The notes: generated from the letters alone by a model not told the origin. Positions 12,649 through 38,858 are shown, counted from the first letter of the stretch. The stretch: 40,356 nucleotides of DNA from Verrucomicrobiia bacterium (GCA_036501565.1 DASYAA010000079.1:1-40356), one strand, 5' to 3'. Numbers and translations are program-made.

Positions 12649-12708
12649 ATCCGTGTCCATCTGTGTCCATCCGTGGTTAAAAACTCTGCGCCTCTGTGTC
12701 TCTGTGGC
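12649..12708. repeat. Composite of two dispersed repeat families (ATCCGTGTCC tandem plus CTCTGCGCCTCTGTGTCTCTGTGGC)
   Basis: atccgtgtccatctgtgtccatccgtgg lies at 12649-12676. ctctgcgcctctgtgtctctgtggc lies at 12684-12708; its first 15 nt (12684-12698) are the exact reverse complement of cacagaggcgcagag at 7771-7785. Confidence 0.7.
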
Positions 12709-15780: not shown

Positions 15781-15902
15781 AGACTTTATATGTATGTCAA
15801 GCGGAAAATTCAGCGCGTCGGCTTTTCGTCGATTGCGCGCCAAAGAAATAGCTCTCGTTACGTCTCAAACTCCGATAAACTGGCAAAGTCGAAAGACATT
15901 TT

Positions 15903-22871: not shown

Positions 22872-24320
22872 TTATTTGAGAACGCTTGCCGCTTGCTCGG
22901 CGAGATTCAAAACTGTGTTCGGAAAAATTCCGAGCCAGAGCATTCCGGCGATGCAAATCACCAGCGAAAATTTTATCGGCGACGATAAAAAAATGGGCGA
23001 TAAATCCGGCGTGTATTTACTCCAAAAAATCGCGCGCACAACGCCAAAATAATAATAGAGCGAAATGACCACTCCGGCGAGCGCGATGAATGCGAGCCAA
23101 TAATAAGCGTGATTTTGAGCGCCCTGTTCGATGACGGCGCGCAGCAATAAAAATTTTCCAAAAAATCCAGCGAGCGGTGGAATGCCCGCGAGCGAAATCA
23201 TCGCGAGCGTCATCGTTGAGGCGAGCAGCGGCGAACGTTGATTCAATCCGGCCAGCGTGGAAATATCTTCGCTTTCCAAATGTTGCATCACGAGAACGAT
23301 GACCGTGAACGACGCGACGACGGTAAATAAATATCCGGCGAAATAATACATGAGTGCCGCCTGCCCGCTCGCGCTCAATGCCGCCACGCCAAGCAGCAAA
23401 TAACCCGCGTGCGCGATGCTCGAATAACCGAGCAGCCGTTTCAAATTGCGTTGCGGAATCGCGCACAAATTTCCGTAAAGAATTGTGGCGGCGGAAATGA
23501 TAATTAAAAAATTTTGCCAATGCGCCGCGACGCTCGGAATTGCCGTGAACAAAACGCGCAGCAGCAAAACAAATCCGGCGGCTTTAGAACCGACAGCAAG
23601 AAACGCGGTCGTCGGCGTGGGCGCGCCTTGATAAACGTCGGGCACCCAGATTTGAAACGGCACAGCGGCGATTTTGAATCCAAGCCCGGTGAGCAAAAAT
23701 AAAACGCCGATCAGAAAAATTTTGTTATCGAGAAATTGCGGCGCGACTTGCGCGAGTTCGGTAAAATTCATTTTGCCGGTCGTTCCCCAAATCAGCGCGA
23801 TACCAAAAACCATGAACGCGGACGACAACGCGCCGATGATTAAATATTTCACGCCCGCTTCAAGTGAAGCCATTTTGTTGCGCTGAAAACTGACGAGCAC
23901 GTAAAACGGGACGGTGATAAGTTCGATGGAAACGAAGAGCATCGCAAAATTATTTGAGGAAGCCGCGAACAACATTCCCGCCAGCGCAAAAATGATGAGC
24001 GAATAAAATTCAGAAATGCCGCTGGAAATTTTTTCGGAAAATTCCGCCGACAAGAATAAAACGAGAATTGCGGCGGTGAGAAAAAATCTTTTGAAAAATA
24101 AAGCGAGTCCGTCTTCGATGAACGAGCCCGTGAACGCGGTGCCGAACGAACTGCAAATGCCTTCGCCGCTAAAACTGATGAGCAATAGAACACCGAGCGC
24201 GACTGCGCCGAAATATGCGAGAAATTTTTTGCGCGCGGGAGAAATCCAAAAATCCGCGAGCAGCAGCACGATGCCGATGGCGATGACGCAAAGCTCGAGG
24301 GTGATCAATGAGGAGTTCAT
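22872..24320 (-). CDS. nuoN: NADH-quinone oxidoreductase subunit N
   Basis: About 482 aa polytopic antiporter-like subunit and the last gene of the nuo array. The ATG at 24320 shares one base with the nuoM TGA (TGATG); a TTG at 24323 is also in frame. Confidence 0.93.
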   Translation of the reverse strand: MNSSLITLELCVIAIGIVLLLADFWISPARKKFLAYFGAVALGVLLLISFSGEGICSSFGTAFTGSFIEDGLALFFKRFFLTAAILVLFLSAEFSEKISSGISEFYSLIIFALAGMLFAASSNNFAMLFVSIELITVPFYVLVSFQRNKMASLEAGVKYLIIGALSSAFMVFGIALIWGTTGKMNFTELAQVAPQFLDNKIFLIGVLFLLTGLGFKIAAVPFQIWVPDVYQGAPTPTTAFLAVGSKAAGFVLLLRVLFTAIPSVAAHWQNFLIIISAATILYGNLCAIPQRNLKRLLGYSSIAHAGYLLLGVAALSASGQAALMYYFAGYLFTVVASFTVIVLVMQHLESEDISTLAGLNQRSPLLASTMTLAMISLAGIPPLAGFFGKFLLLRAVIEQGAQNHAYYWLAFIALAGVVISLYYYFGVVRAIFWSKYTPDLSPIFLSSPIKFSLVICIAGMLWLGIFPNTVLNLAEQAASVLK

Positions 24321-25873
24321 CAATTTGGGATTGCGGATTGCGGATTGCGGATTTCTGAAATGGCAGCAACGTTTTGTTTTTCAACAGTCGAATTTGCCAG
24401 GCTCACGATTTTTTGCGCGTCAGGATTGATTTTTTCCGTCAGCAATTTCGGCAGGAAGCCGAACAGCAGGAGGCTCGCCAGCAAAAGCGCGTAAGGCAGT
24501 TTGCGCCAGACGTTCGAGGCGTCGGTGAGGGTTGAAAATTTTTCCGAGACCGGCCCGTGCAAAATGTCGCGGATGGCGCGCGTCATGTAAACCGCGCCGA
24601 TGATGAGCGCGCCCCAAACAGCGAGCGTCGTCACGAGCGGAAAAATTTTCCACGAGCCGAAGAAGACGGTGACTTCGCCGACGAAATTCGCGAAGCCGGG
24701 CAAGCCGCAACCGGCCATTGCCGCCATCAACAGTGCCGTGCCAATGAATCGCAACGGACGGCAAAGTCCACCGAGTTCGCTGATTTGGAGCGTGCCGGTT
24801 TTTTGATAAATGTAACCGCTCAAGGCGAATGTCAGCGCTGCGAGAAATCCGTGCGCGATCATGATCAAAACCGCGCCGGTCACGCCGACGATATTCAGGC
24901 TCGCGATGCCAAGGAAAATGAAGCCCATGTGCGCCACGCTGGAATTGCCGATGAGCAGGTTCAAATCTTTTTGTTTCATGGCGACCCAGCCGACATACAA
25001 AATGTTGCCGAGGCAAAGCCACGCGAGAATTTGCATCCAATGTTGCGCGGCCTGCGGCATCAGCGGCAGCGCGATGCGGATCAAACCGTAGAGGCCGAAT
25101 TTTTTCAGCACGCCGGCGTGAAGCATCGCGGTCGGCGCAGGCGCAACGCCGTAGCCAAGCGGTGCCCAAGAATGGAACGGCCAGAGCGAAACCAAAATCC
25201 CAAATCCGAACAACAGCAGCGGGAAAATAAGATTCTGCGCGTTCGACGTCAGCGGATGCGCCGCGATGTATTCCGTGAGTTTTGGAATGTCAAATGTGTT
25301 CGCGCCGGATTTCAGATAGAGCGCGATGAGACCGATGAGCGCGATGAGCGCGCCGAGGCTTAAGTAAATCGTGATTTGGAACGTTGCGTAATTTTTCCGT
25401 TCGCCGCGTCCCCAGACGCCGATCATGATGAACGTCGGGATCAGCGCGAATTCGTGGAACGCGTAAAAGAAAAACAGATCGAGCGACGCGAACGCGCCGA
25501 GGATGCCGCCGGTCATCACAAGTAGCAAAATGTAAAATTCCTTTTCGCGCGTCTGGATTTCACACGAGCAGAGCGCGGCGGCGAACGCGACGATTGCGCC
25601 CATCAAAATCAGGCCGACGTTCAAGCCGTCCACGCCGACGTGATAACTGATGCCGAGTGATGCGACCCACGGGATTTGCTGCACGAAGCGATAGCCATCC
25701 GCGTCCACCGGCGTGCCGGCGTATTGGCAAAACATTTTCACGGCGAGCGCCGCCGAAATGAGCGTCGCCAAAACCGCGATGGCGCGGATGATGACGCGGT
25801 AATTGCGCGGCACGAACACCAGCAACAGTGCTGCCAGCAGCGGCCAGCCTAAAATGTAAGTCAGTATGGACAT
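24320..25873 (-). CDS. nuoM: NADH-quinone oxidoreductase subunit M
   Basis: Polytopic antiporter-like subunit whose position and length fit NuoM. The ATG at 25873 (MSILTYILGWPLL) is preferred; an in-frame TTG at 25885 is the alternative. Confidence 0.93.
   Translation of the reverse strand: MSILTYILGWPLLAALLLVFVPRNYRVIIRAIAVLATLISAALAVKMFCQYAGTPVDADGYRFVQQIPWVASLGISYHVGVDGLNVGLILMGAIVAFAAALCSCEIQTREKEFYILLLVMTGGILGAFASLDLFFFYAFHEFALIPTFIMIGVWGRGERKNYATFQITIYLSLGALIALIGLIALYLKSGANTFDIPKLTEYIAAHPLTSNAQNLIFPLLLFGFGILVSLWPFHSWAPLGYGVAPAPTAMLHAGVLKKFGLYGLIRIALPLMPQAAQHWMQILAWLCLGNILYVGWVAMKQKDLNLLIGNSSVAHMGFIFLGIASLNIVGVTGAVLIMIAHGFLAALTFALSGYIYQKTGTLQISELGGLCRPLRFIGTALLMAAMAGCGLPGFANFVGEVTVFFGSWKIFPLVTTLAVWGALIIGAVYMTRAIRDILHGPVSEKFSTLTDASNVWRKLPYALLLASLLLFGFLPKLLTEKINPDAQKIVSLANSTVEKQNVAAISEIRNPQSAIPN
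24329..24353. repeat. Heptanucleotide tandem repeat GATTGCG x3 plus a partial copy at the nuoM 3' end
   Basis: Copies lie at 24329-24335, 24336-24342 and 24343-24349, followed by gatt. They encode the NuoM tail IRNPQSAIPN. Confidence 0.85.
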
Positions 25874-25888
25874 TTTATTTTCCAAAAA

Positions 25889-26302
25889 TCATGGCCGGGT
25901 TTCTTCCGGCAACAAACTCAACACAAAATCATAAATTTCCCGCGCCTGTTTAAGCGCTTCATCAAATTCTTCGCGCGTAGGCATCGTTTCGGACAAATCG
26001 TCCGGGTAGCGAAATTCCCAGGCGTAAGGCGTCAACGCCGCCGCCGCCGGAACAAATTTATCGAAACGCGGTTCAATCGCGGAGGCTTCAACCGCCAGCT
26101 TGCGAATGTCGTGCGTTTTTTCCGGCGTGATTTCTTTGAACACCAGAAATGATTTCACGGCTTTTTCGGCGCCCTGCTGGCAATGATAAATCGCCACGTC
26201 GAGCGGACCTTCCGGGTCGTTGCTCAAAACGCGCGCGCTCCGCAAATCGCCGGCGGCTTTGGTCAGCCAGGAACGCACAAGTTGTCTGTGAGTTTCATCC
26301 AT
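25889..26302 (-). CDS. HEPN domain protein (PF05168-like; putative toxin partner of the upstream nucleotidyltransferase)
   Basis: 137 aa, all-alpha. AGDLRSA..L, the conserved KTHDIRKL helix and EFRYPDD are as seen in small HEPN proteins paired with MNT genes. It overlaps the MNT gene by 8 nt. Confidence 0.8.
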   Translation of the reverse strand: MDETHRQLVRSWLTKAAGDLRSARVLSNDPEGPLDVAIYHCQQGAEKAVKSFLVFKEITPEKTHDIRKLAVEASAIEPRFDKFVPAAAALTPYAWEFRYPDDLSETMPTREEFDEALKQAREIYDFVLSLLPEETRP

Positions 26303-26615
26303 AGAGTTTGCGTCCCCGCTTCAAAATGTCCTGCGTCAAACTTCCGCGAACGTCGCGCACGCGATTCACCTCCCGGCGCGTCCTGACCAAAATGTCGGCG
26401 GAAATCAGTAGTCTGCCCAGACAATGCTGCGCGCGCTGGTCGCGGCGAATCGGCCGCTCGTCGCTTTGCGGGACGATGACCATGAAATCCACGTCGCTGT
26501 CCTCGGTCGGCGCGCCCCACGCGTGCGAGCCGAACAAATAAATTTCCTCCGGTTGAAATTCATTTTTCAACCGTTCAACCGCTTCGTCCAATAAATGTTG
26601 CGGGACGATTTTCAT
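26295..26615 (-). CDS. Minimal nucleotidyltransferase (MNT, NTP_transf_2-like; putative antitoxin)
   Basis: 106 aa with the motif IYLFGSHAWGAPTEDSDVDFMVIV (G-S ... D-x-D polymerase-beta-fold signature). Its ATG directly abuts the nuoL TAA (TAAATG). Confidence 0.88.
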   Translation of the reverse strand: MKIVPQHLLDEAVERLKNEFQPEEIYLFGSHAWGAPTEDSDVDFMVIVPQSDERPIRRDQRAQHCLGRLLISADILVRTRREVNRVRDVRGSLTQDILKRGRKLYG

Positions 26616-28484
26616 TTATTTTCCCAAAACAAAATAGAGCAACAGCGCCACGCCGAGCACGAACAGAAAAGCGTAGGTTTGCAAGTTGCCGGTTTGCATG
26701 AGGCGCAGGGCGCGTCCGCTCAAATCCGTGCCGCCGCGAATCGCGCCGATGCAAAAACCTTCGACGAGCCAGCGGTCAATCCAATCGGCGACCGTTGCGA
26801 TGAAATCATGCGCGCGGATGAAAGTGGCTTCGTAAAGTTCGTCGAAATAAAAGCGGTTTTTCATCGCCGTCGCGAGACCGCCGAGTTTCGCGGGCAATGG
26901 ATCAGTTGACGCTTTGACGTAAAGTTTGAATGCCAAAGTGAAGCCGATGATGAAAGCAAGAATGCCGAGTGACGCGGCGAGAGGCGAATGGATGAACGGC
27001 GCGAAAAGTGTCGCGGCAAAACCGGCGGATTTTTCCGCTCCGTCGGGAAAATTGTAGTGGTAAATTCCTTCGATGCCGATGACGCCGCCGATCAAACTGA
27101 AACCGGCCAGCACGATCAGCGGCAAGGTGATGACCGCCGGTGATTCGTGCGCGTGCGAGGCTGCGTCGGATTTTTCCGCGCCGTAAAAAACGACGAAGAA
27201 AAGTCGGAAAATATAAAATGTCGTGAGTCCGGCGATGAAGACGGCGTTGGCGAACAGAAGATAATTATGCTGCGCGAGGGCTTGCGCGAAAATGCTGTCC
27301 TTGCTGAAAAATCCGCTCATCGGCCACACGCCGGAAAGCGCGAGCGCGCCGATGAGAAATGTCCAGAATGTCACCGGCATTTTCTTTCGCAGATTTCCCA
27401 TTTTCCAGATGTCCTGCTCGTGATGCGTCGCGAGAATGACCGAGCCGGCGCTCAAGAACAGCAGCGCTTTGAAAAATGCGTGCGTCGTCAAATGAAACAT
27501 CGCAGGCACGGGACCGGCGAGGCCGACGGCCATGACCATGTAACCGAGTTGCGACAGCGTCGAGTAGGCGATGATGCGTTTGATGTCGTTTTGCTGGACA
27601 GCGATGAGCGCGGCGAGCAACGCGGTGAATCCGCCGATGTAAGCGATGACGTGCAGCGCGTCGGCGTTGAGCAAAAAGAAAATGCGGCAGAGCATATAGA
27701 CACCGGCGGCAACCATTGTTGCGGCGTGGATGAGCGCAGAAACCGGCGTCGGGCCTTCCATGGCATCCGGCAACCAGACGTGCAGCGGGAATTGAGCGGA
27801 TTTGCCGACGGCACCGCAGAAAATCAGAAGTCCGGCGGTGGTTGCCATCGCGCCGATCGCGGCGGGGTTGGCGACAATTGAATTTTGCAGCGCGGAAAAA
27901 TTCAGCGAACCGAGAATTCCCCAGACCATTAAAATGCCGAGCAAAAATCCGAAGTCGCCGAGGCGATTGACGATGAAGGCTTTTTTCGCGGCGTCGCCGG
28001 CGCTGGGTTTTTCAAACCAGAATCCGATGAGCAGGTAGCTGGACACGCCGACGAGTTCCCAGAAGATGAACATCTCGATGAAATTGTTCGCGAGCACGAT
28101 GCCGAGCATCGAGAACGTGAACAGGCTCATGAACGCGAAGAAACGCGCCATGCCTTTGTCTTCGTGCATATAGCCGAAGGAATAAATGTGGATCGCGCCG
28201 CCGACGCCGGTGATGATGAGCAGCATCATAAGGCTCAACGCGTCGAGCTTGAGGCCGAAGTCAACGTGCAGGTCGCCGATGGTGAGCCAGTTCGTCGAAG
28301 TTTCCGCATTGATGTGAAATCCATTCGCGCTGATAAAAATAATTGTCAGAATAAATCCGGCGACGACTGCGCCGATGGAGATGAGACTGCTCATCGTTTT
28401 GCAACGCAACGTGAAAAGCGTTATCACCACCACTGACAGCAGCGGCAGGAACAAAATGATCCAAGGCAAAATTTCGTATTTCAT
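26616..28484 (-). CDS. nuoL: NADH-quinone oxidoreductase subunit L
   Basis: 622 aa polytopic antiporter-like subunit with a C-terminal lateral-helix extension. It follows nuoK. Confidence 0.95.
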   Translation of the reverse strand: MKYEILPWIILFLPLLSVVVITLFTLRCKTMSSLISIGAVVAGFILTIIFISANGFHINAETSTNWLTIGDLHVDFGLKLDALSLMMLLIITGVGGAIHIYSFGYMHEDKGMARFFAFMSLFTFSMLGIVLANNFIEMFIFWELVGVSSYLLIGFWFEKPSAGDAAKKAFIVNRLGDFGFLLGILMVWGILGSLNFSALQNSIVANPAAIGAMATTAGLLIFCGAVGKSAQFPLHVWLPDAMEGPTPVSALIHAATMVAAGVYMLCRIFFLLNADALHVIAYIGGFTALLAALIAVQQNDIKRIIAYSTLSQLGYMVMAVGLAGPVPAMFHLTTHAFFKALLFLSAGSVILATHHEQDIWKMGNLRKKMPVTFWTFLIGALALSGVWPMSGFFSKDSIFAQALAQHNYLLFANAVFIAGLTTFYIFRLFFVVFYGAEKSDAASHAHESPAVITLPLIVLAGFSLIGGVIGIEGIYHYNFPDGAEKSAGFAATLFAPFIHSPLAASLGILAFIIGFTLAFKLYVKASTDPLPAKLGGLATAMKNRFYFDELYEATFIRAHDFIATVADWIDRWLVEGFCIGAIRGGTDLSGRALRLMQTGNLQTYAFLFVLGVALLLYFVLGK

Positions 28485-28487
28485 CCG

Positions 28488-28793
28488 TCAGAGTTTCATC
28501 GAGGTCAGGTCTTCGACGTGCGCGGTCTGGCGTTTGCGGTAAAGCGCGACGATGAGCGCGAGGCCGACCGACACTTCCGCCGCCGCCACGGTGATGATGA
28601 AAAACACCAGGATCTGGCCGTTCAAGTTGTCGTTGAAACGCGAGAACGCGACAAGCGCGAGGTTCGCCGCGTTGAGCATCAGCTCCAGCGACATATAAAT
28701 GACGAGCAGATTCCGCCGCATAATGACGCCGAGCAATCCCAGCGCGAAGAGCAGGAAGCTGACGGTCAAATAATGTTCGAGTCCGACGTGCAT
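28488..28793 (-). CDS. nuoK: NADH-quinone oxidoreductase subunit K
   Basis: 101 aa, 3 TM, with [14 protein letters not shown]...[16 protein letters not shown]. Confidence 0.95.
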
Positions 28794-28794
28794 A

Positions 28795-29301
28795 TTATTT
28801 CAAATCCTTTTTGCTCAACAAAATCACGCCGATCATCGCCACGAGCAGCAGCACGGAGACGACTTCAAACGGCAAAACGTATTGCGTGAACAACAATTTT
28901 CCGAGCGCCGTGGTGTCGCCTTCAATCGTGGGCGATGCTTGTGCGTTGAGATTTGTCGCATGCAAACTTTTCAAAAAGATGGCGACGATTGTGCCGACGG
29001 AAACCAATCCAGCCACGATGCCGAACATTTTTATTTTGCGACGTTGTTCCTCTTTCAAATCGAGCAACATGATGACGAACAGGAACAGCACGATGACCGC
29101 GCCGGCGTAGACGAGGATTTGCACTGCCGCGAGGAAGAACGCGTGCAGCAGCACGAACAGCCCGGCCATCGAGATGATGGTGAGCACGAGAAACATCGCG
29201 CTCGTGACCGGGTTGCGGCTGAACGGGTTCGCGATGACGAGCACGCCGCACAACAGCGTCAGCGCCGCGAAGACATAAAATAAAATGTCAGGCAGTCCCA
29301 T
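28795..29301 (-). CDS. nuoJ: NADH-quinone oxidoreductase subunit J
   Basis: About 168 aa, 5 TM. Its position between nuoI and nuoK fits NuoJ. The ATG at 29301 is preferred; a TTG at 29307 is the alternative. Confidence 0.92.
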
Positions 29302-29311
29302 GTTCAAGGTT

Positions 29312-29869
29312 TCAGACTTTTACCGGAAAATCTTCCTGTTCCTTCGCTTCTTCCAATTTGTTTTTCCATTTCTGGACGCCGCCGACCGTGCCGCCGAGCG
29401 CGAGGAGTTTTTCCTTGTCGTAAATCATTTCCTCGCGCGTCAGGCCGGTAAGCGAATAATCTTTTTGCAGAAAAATCGCCTCTTCGGGGCAGACTTCCTG
29501 GCAGAAACCGCAGAAAATGCAGCGGAGCATGTTGATCTCGAACTGCTCCGGCATTTTTTCAGCGTTCGAGCGGTCGGCCAATTGTCCGGCCGGACCGGGC
29601 GGAATGATTTTGATCGCCTTGGGCGGGCAGACAAATTCGCAAAGCTGGCACGAGACGCATTTCGTGTTGCCTTCCTGATCCTTGACGAGATACGGCGCGC
29701 CGCGATAATCCTCCGGCACGGCCCATTTCTGCTCGGGATATTCCATCGTCACTTTTTTGCCCTCGAACAAAGTGCGATAGGCATGACGCATCGTGACCTT
29801 CAGCCCACCGATGATGGCGGGCACATAAAGTTTTTCCCAAAACGTCAATGGTCTGCGATTTACGATCAT
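29312..29869 (-). CDS. nuoI: NADH-quinone oxidoreductase subunit I (2x[4Fe-4S])
   Basis: Contains CVSCQLCEFVCP and CIFCGFCQEVCP. Confidence 0.96.
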   Translation of the reverse strand: MIVNRRPLTFWEKLYVPAIIGGLKVTMRHAYRTLFEGKKVTMEYPEQKWAVPEDYRGAPYLVKDQEGNTKCVSCQLCEFVCPPKAIKIIPPGPAGQLADRSNAEKMPEQFEINMLRCIFCGFCQEVCPEEAIFLQKDYSLTGLTREEMIYDKEKLLALGGTVGGVQKWKNKLEEAKEQEDFPVKV

Positions 29870-29885
29870 TTCAATTTTTTTTCAG

Positions 29886-29935
29886 ACAGAATTAACAAAA
29901 TTTTCAGAATTAAATTCCAATTTTGTTAATTCTGT
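29886..29935. repeat. Perfect 17-bp inverted repeat in the nuoI-nuoH spacer
   Basis: acagaattaacaaaatt (29886-29902) pairs with aattttgttaattctgt (29919-29935) across a 16-nt loop. The element is AT-rich. Confidence 0.85.
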
Positions 29936-29945
29936 AAATTCCGTC

Positions 29946-31007
29946 TCAACTCTTCATCCACAAAATCACCGCTGTTATCAAAATGTTTGCCAACGCGAGC
30001 GGCACGAACCGCCGCCAGCCCAAATCCATCAATTGGTCGTAACGAAAACGCGGGAACATCCAACGCACCCAGATGAACAACGTCATCAACGCGCACATTT
30101 TCGCGAGAAAAATTAAAATCTGCAAAATGCCGATGCCGATGTTTTGCGCGGGCTGATCCAATCCCCAAAACGGCAGCGTCCAGCCGCCGAAAAACAGCGT
30201 TGTCATCATTCCCGCCGCCGCGACCATGTTGGAATATTCCGCGAGAAAAAACAGCGCGAATTTCATCGAGCCGTATTCCGTGTGATAGCCGCCGACCAAT
30301 TCCGTTTCCGCTTCCGGCAAATCGAACGGCGTGCGATTCGTTTCCGCAAAACTTGCCACGAGAAAAATAATGAACGACAGCGGCGCGTAAATGATGAGCC
30401 AGCCGTGTTGCGTTTGCCAATTGATGATCTGGCTCAAATTCAAATTGCCCGCGATGAGAAAAACCGGAATCGCGCTCATGCCCATCGCGATTTCATACGA
30501 AATCATTTGCGCGCTCGAACGGATGCCGCCGAGGAACGGATATTTTGAATTCGCCGCGTAACCCGCGAGCACAATTCCATAAACGCCGAGCGAAACGATT
30601 CCAAACGTGTAAAGAATTCCCACGTTCAAATCCGCGATGACCATTTTTTGATGACCGATTTGCGAGCCAAACGGAATGACCGCGATGACGAGCAGCGAAG
30701 GAATCACTGCCAGCGCCGGTGCGAGCCAGAAATACGCCTTGCGCACGCCTGCCGGAGTAAAATCTTCCTTGAGCATGAATTTTAAGCCGTCCGCCAGCGG
30801 CTGGAAAATTCCCATGCGCGTCAAAATCGGTCCGAGAATCGGAATGTATTTCATGAACGGCGGCGCGACGCGATTCGGCCCGAGGCGATCTTGAATCCAC
30901 GCCGAAACTTTCCGCTCCACCAAAACCGCGTAAGCCGCGATGACATGCAGGATACCGATCGCCAGCGCGATTTTTACAATGCTGAAAATGATAAAATTCC
31001 AGTCCAT
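29946..31007 (-). CDS. nuoH: NADH-quinone oxidoreductase subunit H
   Basis: 353 aa, polytopic, with ERKVSAWIQDRLGPNRVGP-like N-terminus, ETNRTPFDLPEAE.ELV.GY.TEY and FFLAEY. Confidence 0.96.
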   Translation of the reverse strand: MDWNFIIFSIVKIALAIGILHVIAAYAVLVERKVSAWIQDRLGPNRVAPPFMKYIPILGPILTRMGIFQPLADGLKFMLKEDFTPAGVRKAYFWLAPALAVIPSLLVIAVIPFGSQIGHQKMVIADLNVGILYTFGIVSLGVYGIVLAGYAANSKYPFLGGIRSSAQMISYEIAMGMSAIPVFLIAGNLNLSQIINWQTQHGWLIIYAPLSFIIFLVASFAETNRTPFDLPEAETELVGGYHTEYGSMKFALFFLAEYSNMVAAAGMMTTLFFGGWTLPFWGLDQPAQNIGIGILQILIFLAKMCALMTLFIWVRWMFPRFRYDQLMDLGWRRFVPLALANILITAVILWMKS

Positions 31008-31008
31008 G

Positions 31009-32694
31009 TTAGATTTGCACCGTCACGCCGGTGTCGCCAAGCGTCGCCCACGCCAGACCGTTGAACGCGGAAACGTCCTTCGCCATTTCGTTGAACAGAC
31101 CTTCGATGGTCACAAAACCGTTCTGGCCGGTGACATTGTGAACGAGGTCGTGCAAAAATTCCCATTCGGCGCGTGCGTCGCCGGGCGCTTCGACGGCCTT
31201 CATGAATTTCTGGACGCGTCCTTTCGTGTTCGTGAACGTGCCGCGTTTTTCCGCGTGCGCGCAGCCGGGCAAAAGATAATGCGCGAGCCTTGTCGTCGCG
31301 TTCGGCAAAATGTCGCTGACGATGAGCGTCTCCAATTTGCCGAGCAAATCCGCGCCGAGGCCGTGCTTCGTCACGTCTTCGCCGAAGACAATTAAAGTTT
31401 TGATTTTACCGTTTGAAATTCCGTTGGCGATTTGCGGCAAATTCGTTCCCATTTCGGTGAAACAAATTCCCGTGAGCCGCGCGCCGTTGCTGTTCGGATT
31501 TTTATCCGCGCTTACGAGCAGCTTGTCGCCTTTGCCGATGCGCGCAATTGAATCACTGATTGCGCCGAACTTCGATTTCAATTTTGAAATCAGCCACAGT
31601 TCTTCGTTTGTCTGCCGCGCGGAAGCAACAATCGCGACTGAGCCTTGCGGCGCTTTCTTCAGCTTGTCGCTGATTTCATTGAGCGCCGCCGTCCACGTCG
31701 TTTTTTGTCCGCGAGCAAGCACATCCTTCAAACGGTCTTCGCGGCCGATCCATTTGTAATTCAAACGGCCGGCGTCGCACATCCAGCAGGAATTGACGGC
31801 GTCGTTCTGGCGCGGTTCGTAGCGATAAACTTTTTCCTCGCGCGAGCCGACGATGACGTTGCAGCCCGTCGCGCAGCTTGTGCAGACGCTTTTGGTCTCC
31901 TTTAAAAACCAGACGCGCATCTGGAAACGAAAATCCTTCGACGTGAGCGCGCCGACGGGACAGATGTCCACGGTGTTGAGCGTGTAATTGTTGTCGAAAA
32001 CTTTTCCCGGATACGCCGTGAGCGTGTTCCAACTGCCGCGATTGACGATGCCGAGCGCGTCGTCGCCGACGATGTCCTTCGTGAACCGGATGCAGCGCGT
32101 GCAAAGGATGCAGCGCTCGTCGTCAAGCACGATGCGCGGGCCGAGGTCAACGGCCTTGGGCTTGTGGACTTTCGGTTCGACGAAGCGGCTCGCGCTCTGG
32201 CCGTAATCAACGGAATATTCCTGCAACTTGCATTCGCCCGCCTGATCGCAGATCGGGCAGTCGAGTGGATGATTGACGAGAAGAAATTCCAGAACGCCTT
32301 CGCGCATCTGTTTCACGCCGGGCGTCGAAGTGTGAATCTCCATGCCCGGCGAAATCGGCGTGGCGCACGCGATGGCCGGGCGCGGCGATTTGGCAATTTT
32401 CGGTGTGCCGTCGGGATTCAAAATGGGCTTGCGATCTGGGCCGAGCGCGGGCGTGCCGTATTCCACAAGGCACATGCGGCAGTTGCCGACGACGGGCAGT
32501 TTCGGATGATAACAATAATGCGGCACGTCCACTTTGTTGAACGCGCACGCTTGAATCATCGTCGTTGGAATTTGTTTGCCGGAAATCGGGTCGGGCATCG
32601 TCTTCGGCACTTCGATTTCGCGACCGTCCACCTTCACCTTGATTTTTTCAATCACAGGCGCGGGCTTAATTTCAGTTGTGGCTGCGGTTGACAT
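31009..32694 (-). CDS. nuoG: NADH-quinone oxidoreductase subunit G (short form, 561 aa)
   Basis: 2Fe-2S and 4Fe-4S motifs are present: CYHPKLPVVGNCRMCLVE, HPLDCPICDQAGECKLQ and CILCTRCIRF. Confidence 0.94.
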   Translation of the reverse strand: MSTAATTEIKPAPVIEKIKVKVDGREIEVPKTMPDPISGKQIPTTMIQACAFNKVDVPHYCYHPKLPVVGNCRMCLVEYGTPALGPDRKPILNPDGTPKIAKSPRPAIACATPISPGMEIHTSTPGVKQMREGVLEFLLVNHPLDCPICDQAGECKLQEYSVDYGQSASRFVEPKVHKPKAVDLGPRIVLDDERCILCTRCIRFTKDIVGDDALGIVNRGSWNTLTAYPGKVFDNNYTLNTVDICPVGALTSKDFRFQMRVWFLKETKSVCTSCATGCNVIVGSREEKVYRYEPRQNDAVNSCWMCDAGRLNYKWIGREDRLKDVLARGQKTTWTAALNEISDKLKKAPQGSVAIVASARQTNEELWLISKLKSKFGAISDSIARIGKGDKLLVSADKNPNSNGARLTGICFTEMGTNLPQIANGISNGKIKTLIVFGEDVTKHGLGADLLGKLETLIVSDILPNATTRLAHYLLPGCAHAEKRGTFTNTKGRVQKFMKAVEAPGDARAEWEFLHDLVHNVTGQNGFVTIEGLFNEMAKDVSAFNGLAWATLGDTGVTVQI

Positions 32695-32697
32695 TTT

Positions 32698-32940
32698 TCA
32701 AATTTCTCCGCGTCGCAAATCTTCAATCGGGAAAATCATTTCAAAATCTCCCCACATCAAATCGCCGTTCTGAATATGGAATGACTTGAATTGTTTCAGG
32801 CGACGATATTTTGAAAACATCGGATTCTGCGCCTTCTTCAGAAACGGCCCGAAGTCAACGAGGCGATGCTTGCCGTCGTTGAATTCAACGTCCACCTTGT
32901 AACGGGGAACATAGCTGGCGTGTTTCACTCGCAAATACAT
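32698..32940 (-). CDS. DUF2442 domain protein
   Basis: 80 aa. The pattern Y.V.VEFNDG..R.VDF.PFL ... F..F.I.NG.L.WGD.EMIFPIEDL is typical of DUF2442 as I remember it. It sits 3 nt after the DUF4160 gene and 3 nt before the nuoG ATG. Confidence 0.8.
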   Translation of the reverse strand: MYLRVKHASYVPRYKVDVEFNDGKHRLVDFGPFLKKAQNPMFSKYRRLKQFKSFHIQNGDLMWGDFEMIFPIEDLRRGEI

Positions 32941-32943
32941 ATT

Positions 32944-33249
32944 CTATTTAATTTTCCGCGTAATAATTTCAGGTTTCACGACTTTGTTCAAAACGAAAAC
33001 ATCCGACCACTTTTTCAAAATATCCTCGGCCTTCGCGTTCACCAGTTCGGCAAAATGTTTTCTGACTTTGCCGGACAGCGGACGGCGATTCGACACGCGG
33101 CAAAACCGGATGGAAACAATTTTTCCATCGCGCGTAATGATTTCAGCTTTTGTCTCAAGCTCGCCATAACGACCATGCACATGAACCGGCAAATGTTCGC
33201 CCGCAAAAAAGAAAACCGAAATGCCAAGATATTCATAAAGTTTGGGCAT
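32944..33249 (-). CDS. DUF4160 domain protein
   Basis: 101 aa. MPKLYEYLGISVFFFAGEHLPVHVHGRYGE matches the DUF4160 N-terminal signature (MP....G..i.my..EH.PPH.H..Y.e). The ATG is 7 nt after the nuoF stop. Confidence 0.8.
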   Translation of the reverse strand: MPKLYEYLGISVFFFAGEHLPVHVHGRYGELETKAEIITRDGKIVSIRFCRVSNRRPLSGKVRKHFAELVNAKAEDILKKWSDVFVLNKVVKPEIITRKIK

Positions 33250-33256
33250 GACGCTT

Positions 33257-34690
<1,434 letters not shown>

Positions 34691-34740
34691 ATCAGCAACT
34701 TGACTCTCAAATAAAATTCTCTAGCCTAATCTGCCCATCC

Positions 34741-34814
34741 TGCCCGATGGTGTAACGGTAGCACAGCAGACTCTGAATCTGTTTGTCATGGTTCAAATCC
34801 ATGTCGGGCAACCA
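34741..34814 (+). tRNA. tRNA-Gln (anticodon CUG), with encoded CCA
   Basis: Hand-folded cloverleaf: acceptor TGCCCGA/TCGGGCA; D arm GTGT-AACGGTA-GCAC; anticodon arm GCAGA-CTCTGAA-TCTGT (U33, CUG, A37); variable loop TTGT; T arm CATGG-TTCAAAT-CCATG; discriminator A; CCA. The U1-A72 pair is typical of bacterial tRNA-Gln. Confidence 0.9.
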
Positions 34815-34816
34815 TT

Positions 34817-35350
34817 TCATTTGCATTTCTCCACAATCTCGTCCGCTTTTTTGTGGCTCACGGCTTCGTAAAAATCGTCATTGCACATCATCACCGGCGG
34901 CGTGCCGCAACTGGCGAGGCACTCGACAAATTCCACCGTGAATTTTCCGTCCGGCGTCGTCTGCGCGCCGTGCGCGTGCGAATCCAAACCGAATTTTTTG
35001 CAAAAATGTTCGCGCAATTCATATGCGCCGCCCAGCGCGCAACTCAACGTGCGGCAAACTTTGATCTGGTATTTGCCCATCGGCTGCGCGCGCAACATTG
35101 GATAAAAGGTCAGCAACTCGTAAATGTTGATCGGCTGCAATTCCAGTTTCTTCGCCGTCCATTCAACGGCTTCTTGCGAAATCCAACCGAATGTATCCTG
35201 AATAGCGTGCAGCACCATGAGCGACGCGGCGCGCTTTTCGGGGTAATGCGTAAGCAATTCTTCCACTTCCGCCTCAAGCGCGGCGGACGCGACGAAATCG
35301 CGCTGGTGTTGCAGCGGATTCGGAATCGGTTCTGTGTGCATCGCGTTCAT
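34817..35350 (-). CDS. nuoE: NADH-quinone oxidoreductase subunit E
   Basis: 177 aa with 2Fe-2S ligand motifs CRTLSCALGG and ECLASCGTPPVMM. There is an ATGA overlap with nuoD. Confidence 0.95.
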   Translation of the reverse strand: MNAMHTEPIPNPLQHQRDFVASAALEAEVEELLTHYPEKRAASLMVLHAIQDTFGWISQEAVEWTAKKLELQPINIYELLTFYPMLRAQPMGKYQIKVCRTLSCALGGAYELREHFCKKFGLDSHAHGAQTTPDGKFTVEFVECLASCGTPPVMMCNDDFYEAVSHKKADEIVEKCK

Positions 35351-36618
35351 CGGTCAGCCTCGCCCATCACAAAATCAATCGAACCCAAAATCACCGGCAC
35401 GTCGCTGATCATCGCGCCGGGCAGCAATTCGCCGAGAATGCTCAAATTGATGAAACTCGGCGAACGGATTTTCAGGCGATACGGCACGCCGCCGCCTTTG
35501 CTGCAAATGTAAAAACCGAGTTCGCCTTTCGGATTTTCGTGGCCGAAATAAATTTCGCCCGGCGGACAATTCATTCCTTCGGTCACGAGCATGAATTGAT
35601 GGATCAATTCTTCCATCTTCGTCATCACTTTTTCCTTCGGCGGCAAAATAATTTTTCCGTCGTCCACATTGACCGGCTCGTGCGTTTCATTTTTCCAGCC
35701 GCCGGGAATTTTTTCGAGGCACTGATATAAAATGCGAACGCTCTGGCGCATTTCTTCCATGCGCACCATGTAACGATCATAACAATCGCCAACGGTACCA
35801 ATGGGAATATCAAATTCCAAATCTTTGTAGCAAAGATACGGCTGATTTTTTCGCAAATCGTATTCGATTCCGCTACCGCGCAAATTCGGGCCGCTCAAGC
35901 CGTAATCAATCGCCATTTCCTTCGAGATGTGGCCGAGGTCGCGCAGGCGATCCACCCAAATACGATTGCGTGTGAGCAGCGTCTCGACTTCGTTGAGCGC
36001 GGGAATAAATTCTTTGCAAAATTGGCGGACTTGATCGCACCAATTTGGCGGCGTGTCGCGCATGACGCCGCCAATGCGCGTGTAACTCGTCGTGAACCGC
36101 GCGCCGGAAATCGCCTCGGCCAAGTTGTAAATTTTTTCGCGCTCGGTAAAAAGCAGGAGAAAAACCGTAACCGCGCCGGTGTCCATCGCGAACGCGCCGA
36201 GTCCGAGCAAATGCGCCGAGATGCGCGCGAGTTCCGCAACCATGACGCGAATGTATTGGCAGCGCGGCGGCAGTTTATCGTGGATGCCCAAAAGTTTTTC
36301 GACGGCGAGCGCGTAGGCGACATTGTTCGCCAGCGGCGCGAGATAATCCAAACGATCCGTGTAAGGAATGAACTGCGTGTAAGTCATGTTCTCGGCGATT
36401 TTTTCGTCGCCGCGATGCAGATAGCCGACATCGGGATCGGCTTTCGTGATGACTTCGCCGTCGAGTTCCAAAACAATTCGTAGCACGCCGTGCGTGGCCG
36501 GATGCGATGGTCCCATGTTCAGCACCATGCGCTCGTCTTGAAAGTCCGGCAATTCTTCAATCACCGCTGCATTGCGCGCGGCGGAATCGGGAATTTCGAT
36601 GTCTTGAATCGTGGGCAT
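35347..36618 (-). CDS. nuoD: NADH-quinone oxidoreductase subunit D
   Basis: 423 aa with MVLNMGPSHPATHGVLR and the C-terminal SIDFVMGEADR. Confidence 0.97.
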   Translation of the reverse strand: MPTIQDIEIPDSAARNAAVIEELPDFQDERMVLNMGPSHPATHGVLRIVLELDGEVITKADPDVGYLHRGDEKIAENMTYTQFIPYTDRLDYLAPLANNVAYALAVEKLLGIHDKLPPRCQYIRVMVAELARISAHLLGLGAFAMDTGAVTVFLLLFTEREKIYNLAEAISGARFTTSYTRIGGVMRDTPPNWCDQVRQFCKEFIPALNEVETLLTRNRIWVDRLRDLGHISKEMAIDYGLSGPNLRGSGIEYDLRKNQPYLCYKDLEFDIPIGTVGDCYDRYMVRMEEMRQSVRILYQCLEKIPGGWKNETHEPVNVDDGKIILPPKEKVMTKMEELIHQFMLVTEGMNCPPGEIYFGHENPKGELGFYICSKGGGVPYRLKIRSPSFINLSILGELLPGAMISDVPVILGSIDFVMGEADR

Positions 36619-36623
36619 GAAAA

Positions 36624-37304
36624 TTATTTTTTTTCAATCGGTCCCGGACCTTTGGGATGGCCGTGCGTTTCTTGAATATCTTTGCGCCGTTCCAAATGCG
36701 ACATCGTTTCAATCGAATCGGTTTCGGGAATACGGATTCGCGGCTCGCGCGCTTGCGCGGAATTTCCACCGGCCACAGTCACAAATGGGCCGCCTTCCAT
36801 CGGCGACGGTTTGGAAAATGCGACGCCGGGCATTTCGCTGTCCTTGCCCGCGAGCGGAAAATCTTTGCGCAACGGAAAATACGGATAGCCTTCCCACATC
36901 AAAATGCGCCGCAAATCCGGGTGGCCGCGAAAATGAATGCCCATCATGTCGTAAATTTCGCGCTCGTGCCAGTTGGCCGTTTTCCAAATTCCAATCACAC
37001 TCGGCAATTTTGATTTTTCCTCGCTGACATCGGTTTTGAGCCGGATTTCATTGCCTTTTTTCAGATTGCGCAAATGATAAACAACCGTCCAGCGCGGCTC
37101 GTCGCCGTAATTGTCCAGACTCGAAATATCCGCGAGATAATCGAAACCAAGAATTTTTTTTGCAAATTCGCAAACGTCGGAAATTTTTTCCGCGTCGGAA
37201 ATGTTCACGGAAACATCGCCGCGAAATTCCGTTGGTTTGGAGATTAAATCGCCAAACTTTTCTTTAAGTTTTCCAGCTTGTTCCAGAGAATTCACTTCGA
37301 TCAA
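36624..37304 (-). CDS. nuoC: NADH-quinone oxidoreductase subunit C
   Basis: 226 aa with ANWHEREIYDMMGIHFRGHPDLRRIL. The start is an apparent TTG. Confidence 0.93.
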   Translation of the reverse strand: MIEVNSLEQAGKLKEKFGDLISKPTEFRGDVSVNISDAEKISDVCEFAKKILGFDYLADISSLDNYGDEPRWTVVYHLRNLKKGNEIRLKTDVSEEKSKLPSVIGIWKTANWHEREIYDMMGIHFRGHPDLRRILMWEGYPYFPLRKDFPLAGKDSEMPGVAFSKPSPMEGGPFVTVAGGNSAQAREPRIRIPETDSIETMSHLERRKDIQETHGHPKGPGPIEKK

Positions 37305-37305
37305 A

Positions 37306-37355
37306 TCGTTGAATTGTTGAATCGAACATTCGCAGCCGCTTCAACAATTTAACGA
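37306..37355. repeat. 16-bp inverted repeat in the nuoB-nuoC spacer
   Basis: tcgttgaattgttgaa (37306-37321) pairs with ttcaacaatttaacga (37340-37355) with one mismatch and an 18-nt loop. Confidence 0.75.
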
Positions 37356-37364
37356 TTCAACCAA

Positions 37365-37898
37365 TCACGCTGCCGCTTCTTCTTTTTTCAAGTGAAACAT
37401 TTTCAAATCCGCGAGCACCGGCTCTTTGCTGATTTTATTTTGCAATTTCATCAGCGCGTCAATCAACGCTTCGGGGCGCGGCGGACAACCGGCCACATAA
37501 ACATCCACCGGCAAAATCCGGTCCACGCCTTGCAGCACGGCGTAACTGCGATACATTCCGCCGGTCGAGGCGCACGCGCCCATCGCGATGCACCATTTGG
37601 GTTCGGCCATTTGATCCCAGACGCGCTTGACGGCGGTGGCCATTTTGTAAGTGACCGTGCCGGCAACGATCATGCAATCGGCCTGTCGCGGCGAAAAACG
37701 CATCACTTCGGAACCAAATCGGGAAATATCGAAACGGCTCGCGCCGACGGCCATCAATTCAATCGCGCAGCAGGCCAAACCCATTGGCATCGGCCAGACG
37801 GAATTTTTACGAAACCAATTGAGCGCGGCGTCAACCGTGGTGACGACAACGTCGCCCTCAATTTTTGAATTATAACCGACTTCGCTTTCAGTTCGCAT
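37365..37898 (-). CDS. nuoB: NADH-quinone oxidoreductase subunit B
   Basis: 177 aa with [16 protein letters not shown] and GCPPRPEAL (N2 cluster ligands). Confidence 0.96.
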
Positions 37899-37964
37899 AA
37901 TCTTGCCGCCTCAAAACAGAGACAACTCAGCGTAACTCCTGCTAAAATCTCCGGCAAGTCAATT

Positions 37965-37980
37965 TGTGATTTTTTTCACA
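37965..37980. promoter_or_regulatory. Candidate CRP/FNR-family binding site: perfect TGTGA-N6-TCACA palindrome
   Basis: tgtga tttttt tcaca was read directly. Its centre is about 74 nt upstream of the nuoB ATG and about 133 nt upstream of the divergent Tmk-like gene. Confidence 0.45.
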
Positions 37981-38105
37981 AGGATTCGAGAATTTGCGTT
38001 GTCACCGAAAATTAACAAACGAAAACGGCTGCCATCGGTTATCAACTTGCGCCTTGTGAGCGGCGGCGGTTTGGCTAAAATGACAAAACGCTGCTGGCGC
38101 GAATT

Positions 38106-38858
38106 ATGAAAACTTTTGCCGAATTGAATTTTCCGGGACGATTGATCGCCGTCGAAGGACTCGACGGTTCGGGCAAGTCAACGCAGATTTATCTGCTCAA
38201 ACGCTGGCTCGAAGCGGAAGGCATCAAGGTCTATTTCAGCGAATGGAATTCTTCCGAGCTGGTAAAATCCGCGACGAGCAAAGGTAAAAAGCGCGAACTG
38301 CTCACGCCGACGACTTTCAGTTTGATCCACGCGACGGATTTTGCCGACCGTTACGAGCGCCATTTGCTGCCGCTTCTGCGCGCCGGTTATATTGTGCTGT
38401 GCGACCGTTATGCATTCACAGCGTTTGCGCGCGACACGGTTCGCGGCTGTCCGCCTGAATGGGTTCGCGGACTTTACAATTTCGCCGCGCAGCCCGACCT
38501 CACGGTTTTTTTCAAAACGGATTTGGAAGTTTCGCTGAACCGGATTTTGGAAGGCCGTCCGAAATTGAAATTCTTCGAGGCTGGAATGGATTTGCGGCTT
38601 TCGACCGATCCTTACGAAAGTTTCCGCATTTTTCAGGGGCGCATTTTGGATCAATATGTCGCGATGACCGAAGAATTCAAGTTCATCGTCATGGACGCGA
38701 ACGAAAACGTCGAAAAACAGCAGGTGATTTTCCGAAAACTCGTGAGCGAGAAAATTGATTTGAGAAAATTCCGGCGCAAAAGTCCGCTGCCATTGCCGCC
38801 GTCTGTTCGCGTCGAGGAAAAAATGAGGGAAATCGAAGAGGATTTGGCCGCCGCATGA
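38106..38858 (+). CDS. Thymidylate-kinase-fold P-loop kinase, divergent (paralog 1)
   Basis: 250 aa with P-loop VEGLDGSGKST and CDRY (the DRY/DRH position of Tmk). I cannot find the (T)REPGG motif. The C-terminal tail is charged. Confidence 0.8.
   Translation: MKTFAELNFPGRLIAVEGLDGSGKSTQIYLLKRWLEAEGIKVYFSEWNSSELVKSATSKGKKRELLTPTTFSLIHATDFADRYERHLLPLLRAGYIVLCDRYAFTAFARDTVRGCPPEWVRGLYNFAAQPDLTVFFKTDLEVSLNRILEGRPKLKFFEAGMDLRLSTDPYESFRIFQGRILDQYVAMTEEFKFIVMDANENVEKQQVIFRKLVSEKIDLRKFRRKSPLPLPPSVRVEEKMREIEEDLAAA

Follow-up and report, generated by a model that had tools for sequence, protein, structure and literature searches.

The nuo genes for respiratory complex I form one of the best-conserved operon architectures in bacteria, and toxin-antitoxin (TA) cassettes, repetitive extragenic palindromic (REP) elements and integration hotspots are familiar in their own right. 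Two-gene modules of DUF4160 and DUF2442 constitute the DhiTA TA system, which has been demonstrated in Dickeya dadantii 3937 under its own autoregulated promoter (PMC8198452) and which acts in Thermus thermophilus as a plasmid-borne, persistence-enhancing module in which the toxin gene leads (PMC12724237). DUF4160 also serves as an effector domain in Menshen systems, and published work offers no confident structural homologue of it (PMC12065111). Among the HEPN/MNT modules, class II combines PF05168 with PF01909, toxicity and AMPylation having been shown for class I only (PMC7641770). Extra open reading frames (ORFs) are on record within the nuo operon as well, an example being urf7 of Rhodobacter capsulatus (PMC9036352). 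Here we describe a nuo cluster in a stretch of 40,356 nucleotides from a Verrucomicrobiia bacterium (GCA_036501565.1, DASYAA010000079.1:1-40356; the whole stretch is referred to as the window), in which a DUF4160/DUF2442 pair and an MNT-HEPN pair lie between consecutive complex I genes. The reading favored here, to which a probability of about 0.6 is given, is that these cassettes are selfish or defence-type passengers that live as extra cistrons specialised for nuo, that they spread by recombination, and that they are not parts of complex I.

The window carries the nuoB-N cluster of a Pedosphaera-like soil Verrucomicrobium (Limisphaerales), its genes being called by ORF listing and Pfam with every family assignment above the Pfam gathering score (Table 1). 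On the minus strand the order is nuoB-C-D-E, nuoF, DUF4160, DUF2442, nuoG-H-I-J-K-L, MNT, HEPN and nuoM-N, which agrees with an earlier note on this DNA that had described nuoB to nuoN as collinear and had placed the two pairs at the nuoF/nuoG and nuoL/nuoM junctions and a tRNA-Gln gene at nuoE/nuoF (junctions are abbreviated below as F/G, L/M, E/F and so on). The same note held that the pairs lie on the nuo strand with no intergenic room for promoters or terminators, and the spacers read from the sequence, which range from -8 to 15 nt, bear this out: 7 nt between nuoF and DUF4160, 3 nt between DUF4160 and DUF2442 and 3 nt between DUF2442 and nuoG, then 0 nt between nuoL and MNT (TAAATG), an 8-nt overlap of MNT and HEPN, and 15 nt from HEPN to the nuoM ATG. 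This ATG aligns with the nuoM starts of relatives and is taken as the start of the gene, the in-frame TTG at 25885 being less likely. Consensus matches over the operon stand at the chance level given by shuffled sequence, both for promoter-like sites (13 against 9.8 expected) and for terminator-like sites (35 against 31.5 expected), and no promoter-like match was found inside or beside either cassette; these scans lend no support to promoters or terminators belonging to the cassettes. The G+C fraction drops to 0.44-0.47 across the DUF pair and climbs to 0.57-0.58 across MNT-HEPN, against 0.50-0.61 for most intervals nearby.

As exact-protein look-ups assign the window to a 42.9-kb metagenome contig (JGI 3300036780), chimeric joins might in principle have produced this arrangement. 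Both sets of cassette junctions are, however, reproduced in independent assemblies from other samples. A HEPN protein identical to that of the window is encoded between nuoL-MNT and nuoM on contigs L162 and L163, a 99%-identical HEPN occupies the same setting on L331 and L332, and an identical DUF4160 protein, with nuoF on one side and DUF2442-nuoG on the other, occurs in six further samples (contigs L165-L170). The junctions thus recur in at least five other samples for L/M and in six for F/G, several of these contigs have clearly diverged flanking genes, and homologous cassettes stand at the same junctions in GTDB genomes. Misassembly was therefore rejected, chimeric joins being excluded by these contigs, and an artefact is regarded as extremely improbable.

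The extent of the phenomenon was measured on 80 loci around nuoF and 40 further non-overlapping loci, retrieved by NuoF and each from a different species-level representative genome of the Limisphaerales/Pedosphaera-type Verrucomicrobiota (subdivision 3). The nuo genes were placed on these loci by tblastn and every junction was measured, a large gap being defined as at least 180 nt of extra DNA. Leaving E/F aside, large gaps were seen at 89 of 681 plus 61 of 322 junctions (150/1003), and 57 of the 87 well-covered loci have at least one; all junctions but B/C are occupied somewhere, F/G most often. Most relatives have junctions of 1-5 nt, reading 'TGATTGCC atg' at F/G and 'TAAA atg' at L/M, and the closest relative (L001, NuoF 95% identical) has a 97-nt palindromic repeat at F/G, another at L/M, and neither pair. 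The synteny comparison, in which L001 and most relatives lack the two pairs, upholds the earlier view of them as accessory content, and the proposal that the operon is a tolerated landing pad fits a survey in which all junctions but B/C are occupied by heterogeneous, co-oriented and tightly packed cargo. The further proposal that selfish modules had landed there needs refining: the inserts are variable passengers, yet they are not random recent arrivals, the DUF pairs forming a single clade and the MNT-HEPN insertion being old, as set out below.

The cargo of the large gaps includes PDDEXK_3/GxxExxY proteins, IS200-like Y1 transposases, PIN and ParE families, N6_N4 and D12 DNA methylases with NotI- and Bpu10I-like endonucleases in restriction-modification (RM) inserts (L038, L018, L057), a full-length OLD-family nuclease (L044; PADLOC Old, 248 bits), and glyoxalase, cupin, SMR, class I methyltransferase, lipoprotein, Cdd1 and PepSY_TM families. 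A FokI-cleavage-like protein gave a weak match, below the Pfam cut-off, and for many cargo proteins no family match was obtained when representative proteins were searched against Pfam, PADLOC and NCBIfam. At F/G of L228 six cassette genes are stacked, among them RelE-like and ParE-like pairs. All cargo genes recognised by a family model or by homology lie on the nuo strand. Opposite-strand ORFs at the DUF-pair and GxxExxY inserts were dismissed as shadows of plus-strand genes, and other minus-strand ORFs (for example at F/G of L035 and L030) were judged spurious, by eye only. ORFs occupy 95-100% of most large gaps, and -4 to +17 nt nearly always separate the last cargo stop from the nuo start that follows; in L057 the spacers around and within the RM insert of three genes measure 19, 2, -4 and 2 nt, and those on the two sides of the OLD gene of L044 measure 4 and 6 nt. 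Dozens of independent inserts share the co-oriented and tight architecture seen in the window, which would be expected if only co-oriented, terminator-free and translationally coupled inserts were tolerated ahead of needed genes.

RM inserts (L038, L018, L057), the OLD nuclease of L044 and the PIN, ParE and RelE-like genes at the junctions of relatives would also suit an anti-phage hotspot, wherein the window pairs would be abortive-infection-type genes that gain constitutive expression. The MNT protein weakly matches the PADLOC candidate system PDC-S09, and the presence of the DUF4160 effector domain in Menshen systems (PMC12065111) points in the same direction. Such a defence islet is nevertheless considered improbable, because HEPN, DUF4160 and DUF2442 have no PADLOC match and much of the cargo (glyoxalase, cupin, SMR, methyltransferase and lipoproteins) is not defence-related.

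Three classes of insert can be told apart, namely bare hairpin repeats, small ORFs enclosed by palindromes, and 'naked' ORF cassettes without inverted repeats, the last of which includes both window pairs. The shorter gaps (60-180 nt) contain heptad-repeat palindromes of various kinds, with folding energies of up to -114 kcal/mol; the H/I and B/C spacers of the window are small members of this class, and the H/I hairpin (-20.7 kcal/mol) has a near-identical element in L002. Terminal inverted repeats were recorded at 13 of 87 large gaps, all of them with GxxExxY or IS200-like cargo. A repeat search found none at either window cassette, and integron- or transposon-like borders were rejected for these two. 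GxxExxY genes (TIGR04256/PDDEXK_3) stand between palindrome arms at K/L in L001 and L010, at J/K in L034 and L078, and at L/M in L061, L063 and L074. The H/I junctions of L060, L066 and L074 hold IS200-like Y1 transposase ORFs of about 173-179 aa with flanking hairpins of the type TCTCATTAACACCCCGCTTCAGCGGGGTG, which may represent genes akin to the REP-associated tyrosine transposases (RAYTs) that are tied to repeat families. The heptad repeats of the window (CGCAAAG-type) are also encountered outside nuo, at 6052-6074, 7771-7830, 11909-11931 and 12684-12698; these sites comprise the argC/rpsI spacer, the livG/livF spacer and two other intergenic spots, with 8 matches against 1.3 expected.

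The DUF pair shows signs of movement between nuo junctions. Against the NCBIfam model toxin_DhiT (NF048015) the window DUF4160 scores 25.2 bits where the cut-off is 100, with residues 1-40 only being matched, and since it falls below this equivalog cut-off the window toxin is a distant relative of DhiT. Scanning the whole collection with an alignment of DUF4160 proteins brought out 521 relatives. The nine that are at least 68% identical are all inside nuo operons (seven at F/G and two at C/D), a further 13 among the weaker matches kept also lie inside nuo operons, all on Verrucomicrobial-type contigs, and matches from Gallionella, Chloroflexota, Bacteroidota and other groups lie outside nuo. 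When toxin and antitoxin were concatenated and a neighbour-joining tree was built, the nuo-borne pairs grouped as a single clade, separate from those of other phyla, and within this clade the C/D and D/E copies nest inside F/G subclades, which shows, at the level of the tree, that the clade has switched junctions (F/G, C/D and D/E). A leader of about 18 nt, AGTCCRCARCCTTGAAYC, is located directly before the toxin ATG in C/D and F/G copies alike, where the upstream nuo gene, whichever it is, takes its final codons and its stop from this leader; it is read as a trace of the pair moving between junctions as a defined unit. No flanking direct repeats were seen for the DUF pair, these being confined to MNT-HEPN.

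The L/M pair has the features of class II HEPN/MNT modules. The HEPN protein matched PF05168 only, and neither PF01934 nor PF08780, no Rx4-6H RNase motif is present across 26 aligned homologues (in which THDxR and YAWEFRYPxD are invariant), and the adjacent PF01909 MNT protein has its GSX10DXD motif intact (FGSHAWGAPTEDSDVDF). MNT scores 32.8 bits against NCBIfam MntA_antitoxin, under the cut-off of 60, and a PDB sequence search gave distant matches only (1WOL for HEPN and 2RFF for MNT). In an attempt to name the four window proteins by PADLOC and NCBIfam, nothing reached a cut-off. As the pair is of class II and toxicity has been shown for class I only (Yao et al. 2020), the pair at L/M is here called a putative TA module. 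The earlier claim that both pairs are TA-type is accordingly divided: it is sound for the DUF4160/DUF2442 family, DhiTA having been demonstrated elsewhere, and it is weakened for the other pair by a class II HEPN that lacks RX4H. HEPN relatives with 77-80% identity occupy the same L/M junction with 0-nt spacers, those with 75% identity or less belong to free-standing pairs with ordinary upstream spacers, and more distant MNT-HEPN pairs at C/D in L239 and L274 represent separate captures. In L274 (1967-4560) both TA families are found together at other junctions, in the order nuoC-MNT-HEPN-nuoD-DUF4160-DUF2442-nuoE. Scaffold L325 (1-2294) reads nuoL-MNT-HEPN, then about 60 nt of the nuoM 5′ end fused to a nuoL 3′ end, MNT (with a run of N) and HEPN again, as would result from a tandemly duplicated junction or else from strain variants collapsed into one.

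The MNT-HEPN unit spans exactly the MNT ATG to the HEPN TGA and is bracketed by a direct repeat of the nuoL end (TTTTGGGAAAATAAA and TTTTTGGAAAATAAA) with a spacing of 741 nt; the two copies agree at 14/15 positions in the window and at 15/15 in L162. Free-standing homologues are not followed by this repeat, it was the sole outlier among 135 scored gaps, and it looks like a target-site duplication. A very recent insertion was rejected as the explanation, lineages that are about 20% diverged at the protein level sharing the insertion. Synonymous divergence (dS) between the two L/M lineages is about 0.9-1.0, at least as large as that of the flanks, which argues that the insertion is old, and the repeat has probably been kept since it restores the native nuoM start region. 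In one of the L/M lineages the HEPN stop has been lost, and the frame reads through the repeat copy.

All four cargo genes of the window are under purifying selection, with ratios of non-synonymous to synonymous divergence (dN/dS, Nei-Gojobori) similar to those of nuo genes: 0.13 for HEPN (against L326), 0.15 for MNT, 0-0.05 for DUF4160 (0 non-synonymous and 15 synonymous changes against L165) and 0.12-0.14 for DUF2442. By this measure the window cassettes are functional, long-term residents. Divergence is unevenly distributed along the operon. Against L162, dS is 0.41-0.54 in nuoH/nuoI, 0.03 in nuoL, 0.014 in MNT, 0 in HEPN, 0.23 in nuoM and 0.009 in nuoN, and against L165 it is 0.20-0.26 in the DUF cassette and 0.61-0.74 in nuoE, F, G and H. 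These mosaic patterns of cassette and flank indicate that homologous recombination through the conserved nuo flanks carries cassettes between the operons of different strains.

Long retention under purifying selection could also reflect functional coupling, a switch recruited by the host in which toxin and labile antitoxin would be made only while nuo is transcribed. Shutdown of nuo, or a change in respiratory demand, would then free the toxin and arrest growth, so that expression of the respiratory chain would be linked with dormancy or with tolerance of stress. As the intergenic spaces are too small for promoters of the cassettes, their expression would follow nuo; the DUF pair clade is found only in nuo in the family, and both TA families recur in nuo at other junctions (L239, L274, L228). 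We consider such a switch unlikely, if worth keeping in mind, because the pairs are patchily distributed (the DUF pair is at F/G in about one species in ten, and the closest relatives are without both pairs) and because the same junctions hold unrelated cargo such as RM genes, OLD, transposases, enzymes and repeats, which argues for permissiveness over a designed circuit. Purifying selection and a co-cistronic position might also mark the small proteins as lineage-specific accessory subunits or assembly factors of complex I, for which the extra ORF urf7 in the nuo operon of Rhodobacter capsulatus would be a precedent (PMC9036352). This is very unlikely: most species of the same family are without the pairs despite nuo genes that are 80-95% identical, the pairs sit at different junctions in different species, and the families in question are shown or predicted TA components that are free-standing in many phyla.

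If the cassettes are instead passengers adapted to nuo, they would be transcribed by read-through from the nuo promoter(s) of a long and probably steadily expressed operon, and they would be translated by stop-start coupling, the duplicated nuoL end returning a native initiation region to nuoM. Only co-oriented, terminator-free inserts would survive, because others would cut off the downstream complex I genes. The addiction property of TA modules would punish loss of a cassette, and a location between highly conserved genes would aid retention, because imprecise deletion would damage a neighbouring nuo gene. The same conserved genes would act as homology arms by which a cassette is carried from strain to strain.

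Several observations weigh against this account. An exclusive and long-lived tie between a TA clade and nuo, kept under purifying selection, is also compatible with a role that benefits the host or is regulatory, and L271 (Opitutaceae), which nests in the nuo clade, is without a nuo gene within 4 kb. The class II HEPN lacks the RNase motif and was not shown to be toxic in the class-defining paper (PMC7641770); the window DUF4160 and MNT fall under NCBIfam equivalog cut-offs, to which the want of PADLOC matches for HEPN, DUF4160 and DUF2442 may be added. Co-transcription and coupling of the cassettes are deduced from the geometry of the genes, and a promoter within the 3′ end of nuoF or nuoL is conceivable. 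There is also a weak terminator-like hairpin with a T-run at the 3′ end of HEPN (25894-25910, minus strand). The liv operon, used as a control for specificity, is a weak one in that it covers 8 close relatives only, the other loci being too divergent, and it showed repeat hairpins and no gene cargo. As to the terminator-like site, it consists of a 5-bp all-GC stem (GCCGG...CCGGC) followed by CATGATTTTT, with a T-run that stems from the duplicated nuoL end, and it might attenuate nuoM-N.

A more far-reaching proposal is that the nuo operon of this Verrucomicrobial family constitutes an integrase-free cassette platform, wherein an unknown mechanism inserts ORF-only units precisely at stop/start junctions. 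The 14-15-nt target duplication of MNT-HEPN, the 18-nt leader found with the DUF pair at both C/D and F/G, and the existence of at least one TA lineage obligate in nuo point that way, and the proposal is put forward as a doubtful one. If it were true, the activity of the toxins would be tied to how the respiratory operon is transcribed.

The tRNA-Gln gene has to be set apart from the cassettes. It had been listed in the earlier note as foreign content, a view that is not tenable because the gene is fixed in relatives and has a conserved promoter of its own: tRNA-Gln(CTG) lies antisense in the E/F gap at 74/74 and 38/38 loci at which both genes could be scored (112/112). It is a separate, ancestral feature. 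Its sequence, a cloverleaf with a CUG anticodon (ARAGORN, Rfam), is 97-99% conserved in relatives, and the promoter pattern TTGACT, 16-17 nt, TAGnnT is invariant in 22/22 aligned relatives that have a minimal E/F spacer. In this minimal layout about 6 nt lie between the 3′ end of the tRNA and the nuoE stop, and 47-54 nt separate the 5′ end from the nuoF ATG; in the window the -35 box is 9 nt from the nuoF start codon. The E/F spacer leaves nuoF no room for a promoter, so transcription of nuoF-N probably runs across the antisense tRNA gene. In the nuo mRNA, the part antisense to the tRNA does not fold better than shuffled sequence does. A cluster of 42 E/F ORFs was rejected as a gene family, being antisense translation of the tRNA. 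Between nuoE and tRNA-Gln a family of about 200 aa with a nucleotidyltransferase-like GMSAAxLQGVPxxTxDVDLW motif was noted in L004, L011, L017, L038, L044, L045, L047, L057 and L071, with a truncated copy in L035; it has no Pfam, PADLOC or NCBIfam match.

The features of the cluster are listed in Table 1. The window sequence upstream of nuoB (37899-39568) consists of a 207-nt spacer followed by divergent tandem thymidylate-kinase-family genes at 38106-38858 and 38855-39568; nuoA is not adjacent to nuoB there, the 13 subunits NuoB-N are present, and no search for nuoA was made elsewhere. NuoG is short in this lineage, with 561 aa in the window and 561-581 aa in relatives against 606-819 for the lengths of NuoG family models, and the window protein scores 445 bits against TIGR01973, under the cut-off of 470. 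Elsewhere in the window a PadR-family regulator gene (15433-15843) overlaps an ORF of 142 aa (15012-15440), beyond which lies an ORF of 213 aa (14363-15004); neither ORF has a Pfam match, and the three form a small co-oriented cluster. In two other contigs (L176, 173-3195; L177, 25-1997) an aminoacyl-tRNA-synthetase-like gene (tRNA-synt_2b and HGTP_anticodon) is apparently split by an AAA_15/AAA_21 ATPase gene of 540-577 aa, with HGTP_anticodon pieces on either side, which could be an insertion inside a gene.

Table 1. Features of the nuo cluster in the window, ordered by coordinate
Feature	Coordinates	Strand	Family match or remark
nuoN	22872-24323	-	PF00361, 242 bits
nuoM	24320-25873	-	PF00361, 180 bits; ATG at 25873
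Direct repeat, copy 2	25874-25888	-	TTTTTGGAAAATAAA; duplicates nuoL end; nuoM translation-start region
HEPN protein, 137 aa, class II type	25889-26302	-	PF05168, 91.8 bits
MNT, 106 aa	26295-26615	-	PF01909, 43 bits; ATG abuts nuoL stop
Direct repeat, copy 1	26615-26629	-	Last 14 nt of nuoL plus one base
nuoL	26616-28484	-	PF00361 and PF00662
nuoK	28488-28793	-	PF00420
nuoJ	28795-29307	-	PF00499
nuoI	29312-29869	-	Fer4 families; NuoI by position and homology to relatives
nuoH/nuoI spacer, REP-like hairpin	29870-29945	-	Perfect 17-bp inverted repeat ACAGAATTAACAAAATT
nuoH	29946-31007	-	PF00146, 390 bits
nuoG, 561 aa	31009-32694	-	PF22117, PF10588, PF00384
DUF2442, 80 aa, DhiA-like putative antitoxin	32698-32940	-	PF10387, 33 bits (gathering 23.9)
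DUF4160, 101 aa, DhiT-like putative toxin	32944-33249	-	PF13711, 35.4 bits (gathering 23)
nuoF	33257-34690	-	PF01512, PF10589; NF010120, 469 bits, over cut-off
tRNA-Gln promoter	34700-34727	+	TTGACT 34700-34705, 16 nt, TAGCCT 34722-34727
tRNA-Gln(CTG)	34741-34814	+	ARAGORN; Rfam RF00005, 66 bits; antisense to nuo
nuoE	34817-35350	-	PF01257
nuoD	35347-36618	-	PF00346
nuoC	36624-37304	-	PF00329
nuoB/nuoC spacer, inverted repeat, REP-like hairpin	37305-37364	-	Folds at -17.9 kcal/mol
nuoB, first gene of the cluster	37365-37898	-	PF01058

Core operons like nuo are usually seen as closed units, and here such an operon is an open site across a family of abundant soil and freshwater bacteria, in which TA, RM and other accessory genes persist as promoter-less nuo cistrons over long evolutionary times. 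If the cassettes are indeed co-transcribed with nuo, they would be natural TA modules that are expressed under the control of a respiratory operon instead of a promoter of their own, and the role of chromosomal TA modules would become testable in a defined regulatory context. The arrangement also suggests one route open to selfish genes, for which conserved flanks would provide both a means of spread and resistance to deletion. For annotation, small nuo-borne genes should not be taken for complex I subunits, and operon predictions that rely on gene order should allow, in Verrucomicrobiota, for passengers and for an antisense tRNA gene between nuoE and nuoF.

Full-text searches aimed at TA pairs in nuo, or at cassettes inserted into conserved operons, turned up no report of such pairs or of mobile cargo of other kinds within a nuo operon. 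No earlier description seems to exist of the arrangement and how far it extends in the family, of the TA clade resident in nuo, or of the fixed antisense tRNA and its promoter; each component can nevertheless be set beside a described system. The DUF pair resembles DhiTA of Dickeya and Thermus in its two Pfam domains, in having the toxin gene first, in its few-nucleotide spacing and in similar protein sizes (101 and 80 aa). It departs from the Dickeya system, a free-standing bicistron with its own autoregulated promoter, in lying inside nuo with 7 nt upstream and 3 nt downstream. The MNT-HEPN pair resembles the HEPN/MNT modules in having a leading MNT gene that overlaps the HEPN gene and in the GSX10DXD motif, and it agrees exactly with class II of Yao et al. 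(2020) in the combination of PF01909 with PF05168 and in the absence of RX4H. Class I HepT/MntA (type VII TA; SO_3166/SO_3165 of Shewanella oneidensis) differs in that its RX4HXY motif is missing from the window HEPN, and because of this absence, and because the window protein is not a member of PF01934 or PF08780, the class I mechanism of an RNase toxin neutralised by AMPylation is not simply transferable. Free-standing MNT-HEPN homologues that are 69-74% identical have upstream spacers of 65-1100 nt, as against 0 nt for the window copy.

With regard to mobile elements, the nuo inserts share with integron cassette arrays and hotspots the promoter-less, co-oriented and tightly packed state of the cassettes, the frequency of TA modules, and a variable content at a fixed place. 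Unlike integrons, the window cassettes come with no intI-type integrase and show no attC-like inverted repeats, and spacers of 0-15 nt are too small for recombination sites; a Phage_integrase-family gene lies at 19788-20708, about 3 kb beyond nuoN (contig L161), with nothing that ties it to the cassettes. The nuo cassettes also reside inside a working operon for an essential-type enzyme and not between transcription units. The GxxExxY and IS200-like ORFs that relatives carry between palindrome arms recall the REP/RAYT systems and the ORFs of 23S rRNA intervening sequences (GxxExxY, TIGR04256), from which both window cassettes, as members of the naked ORF class, are distinguished by the lack of flanking inverted repeats. 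A likeness of arrangement only is seen with the unidentified reading frames (URFs) of alphaproteobacterial complex I clusters, where non-subunit ORFs are likewise co-oriented between complex I genes; the nqo cluster of Paracoccus denitrificans also has such interspersed URFs. To our knowledge none of these alphaproteobacterial URFs is a TA-type pair, and the cargo in the family of the window differs from them in varying from species to species and in being drawn from mobile and defence-type families.

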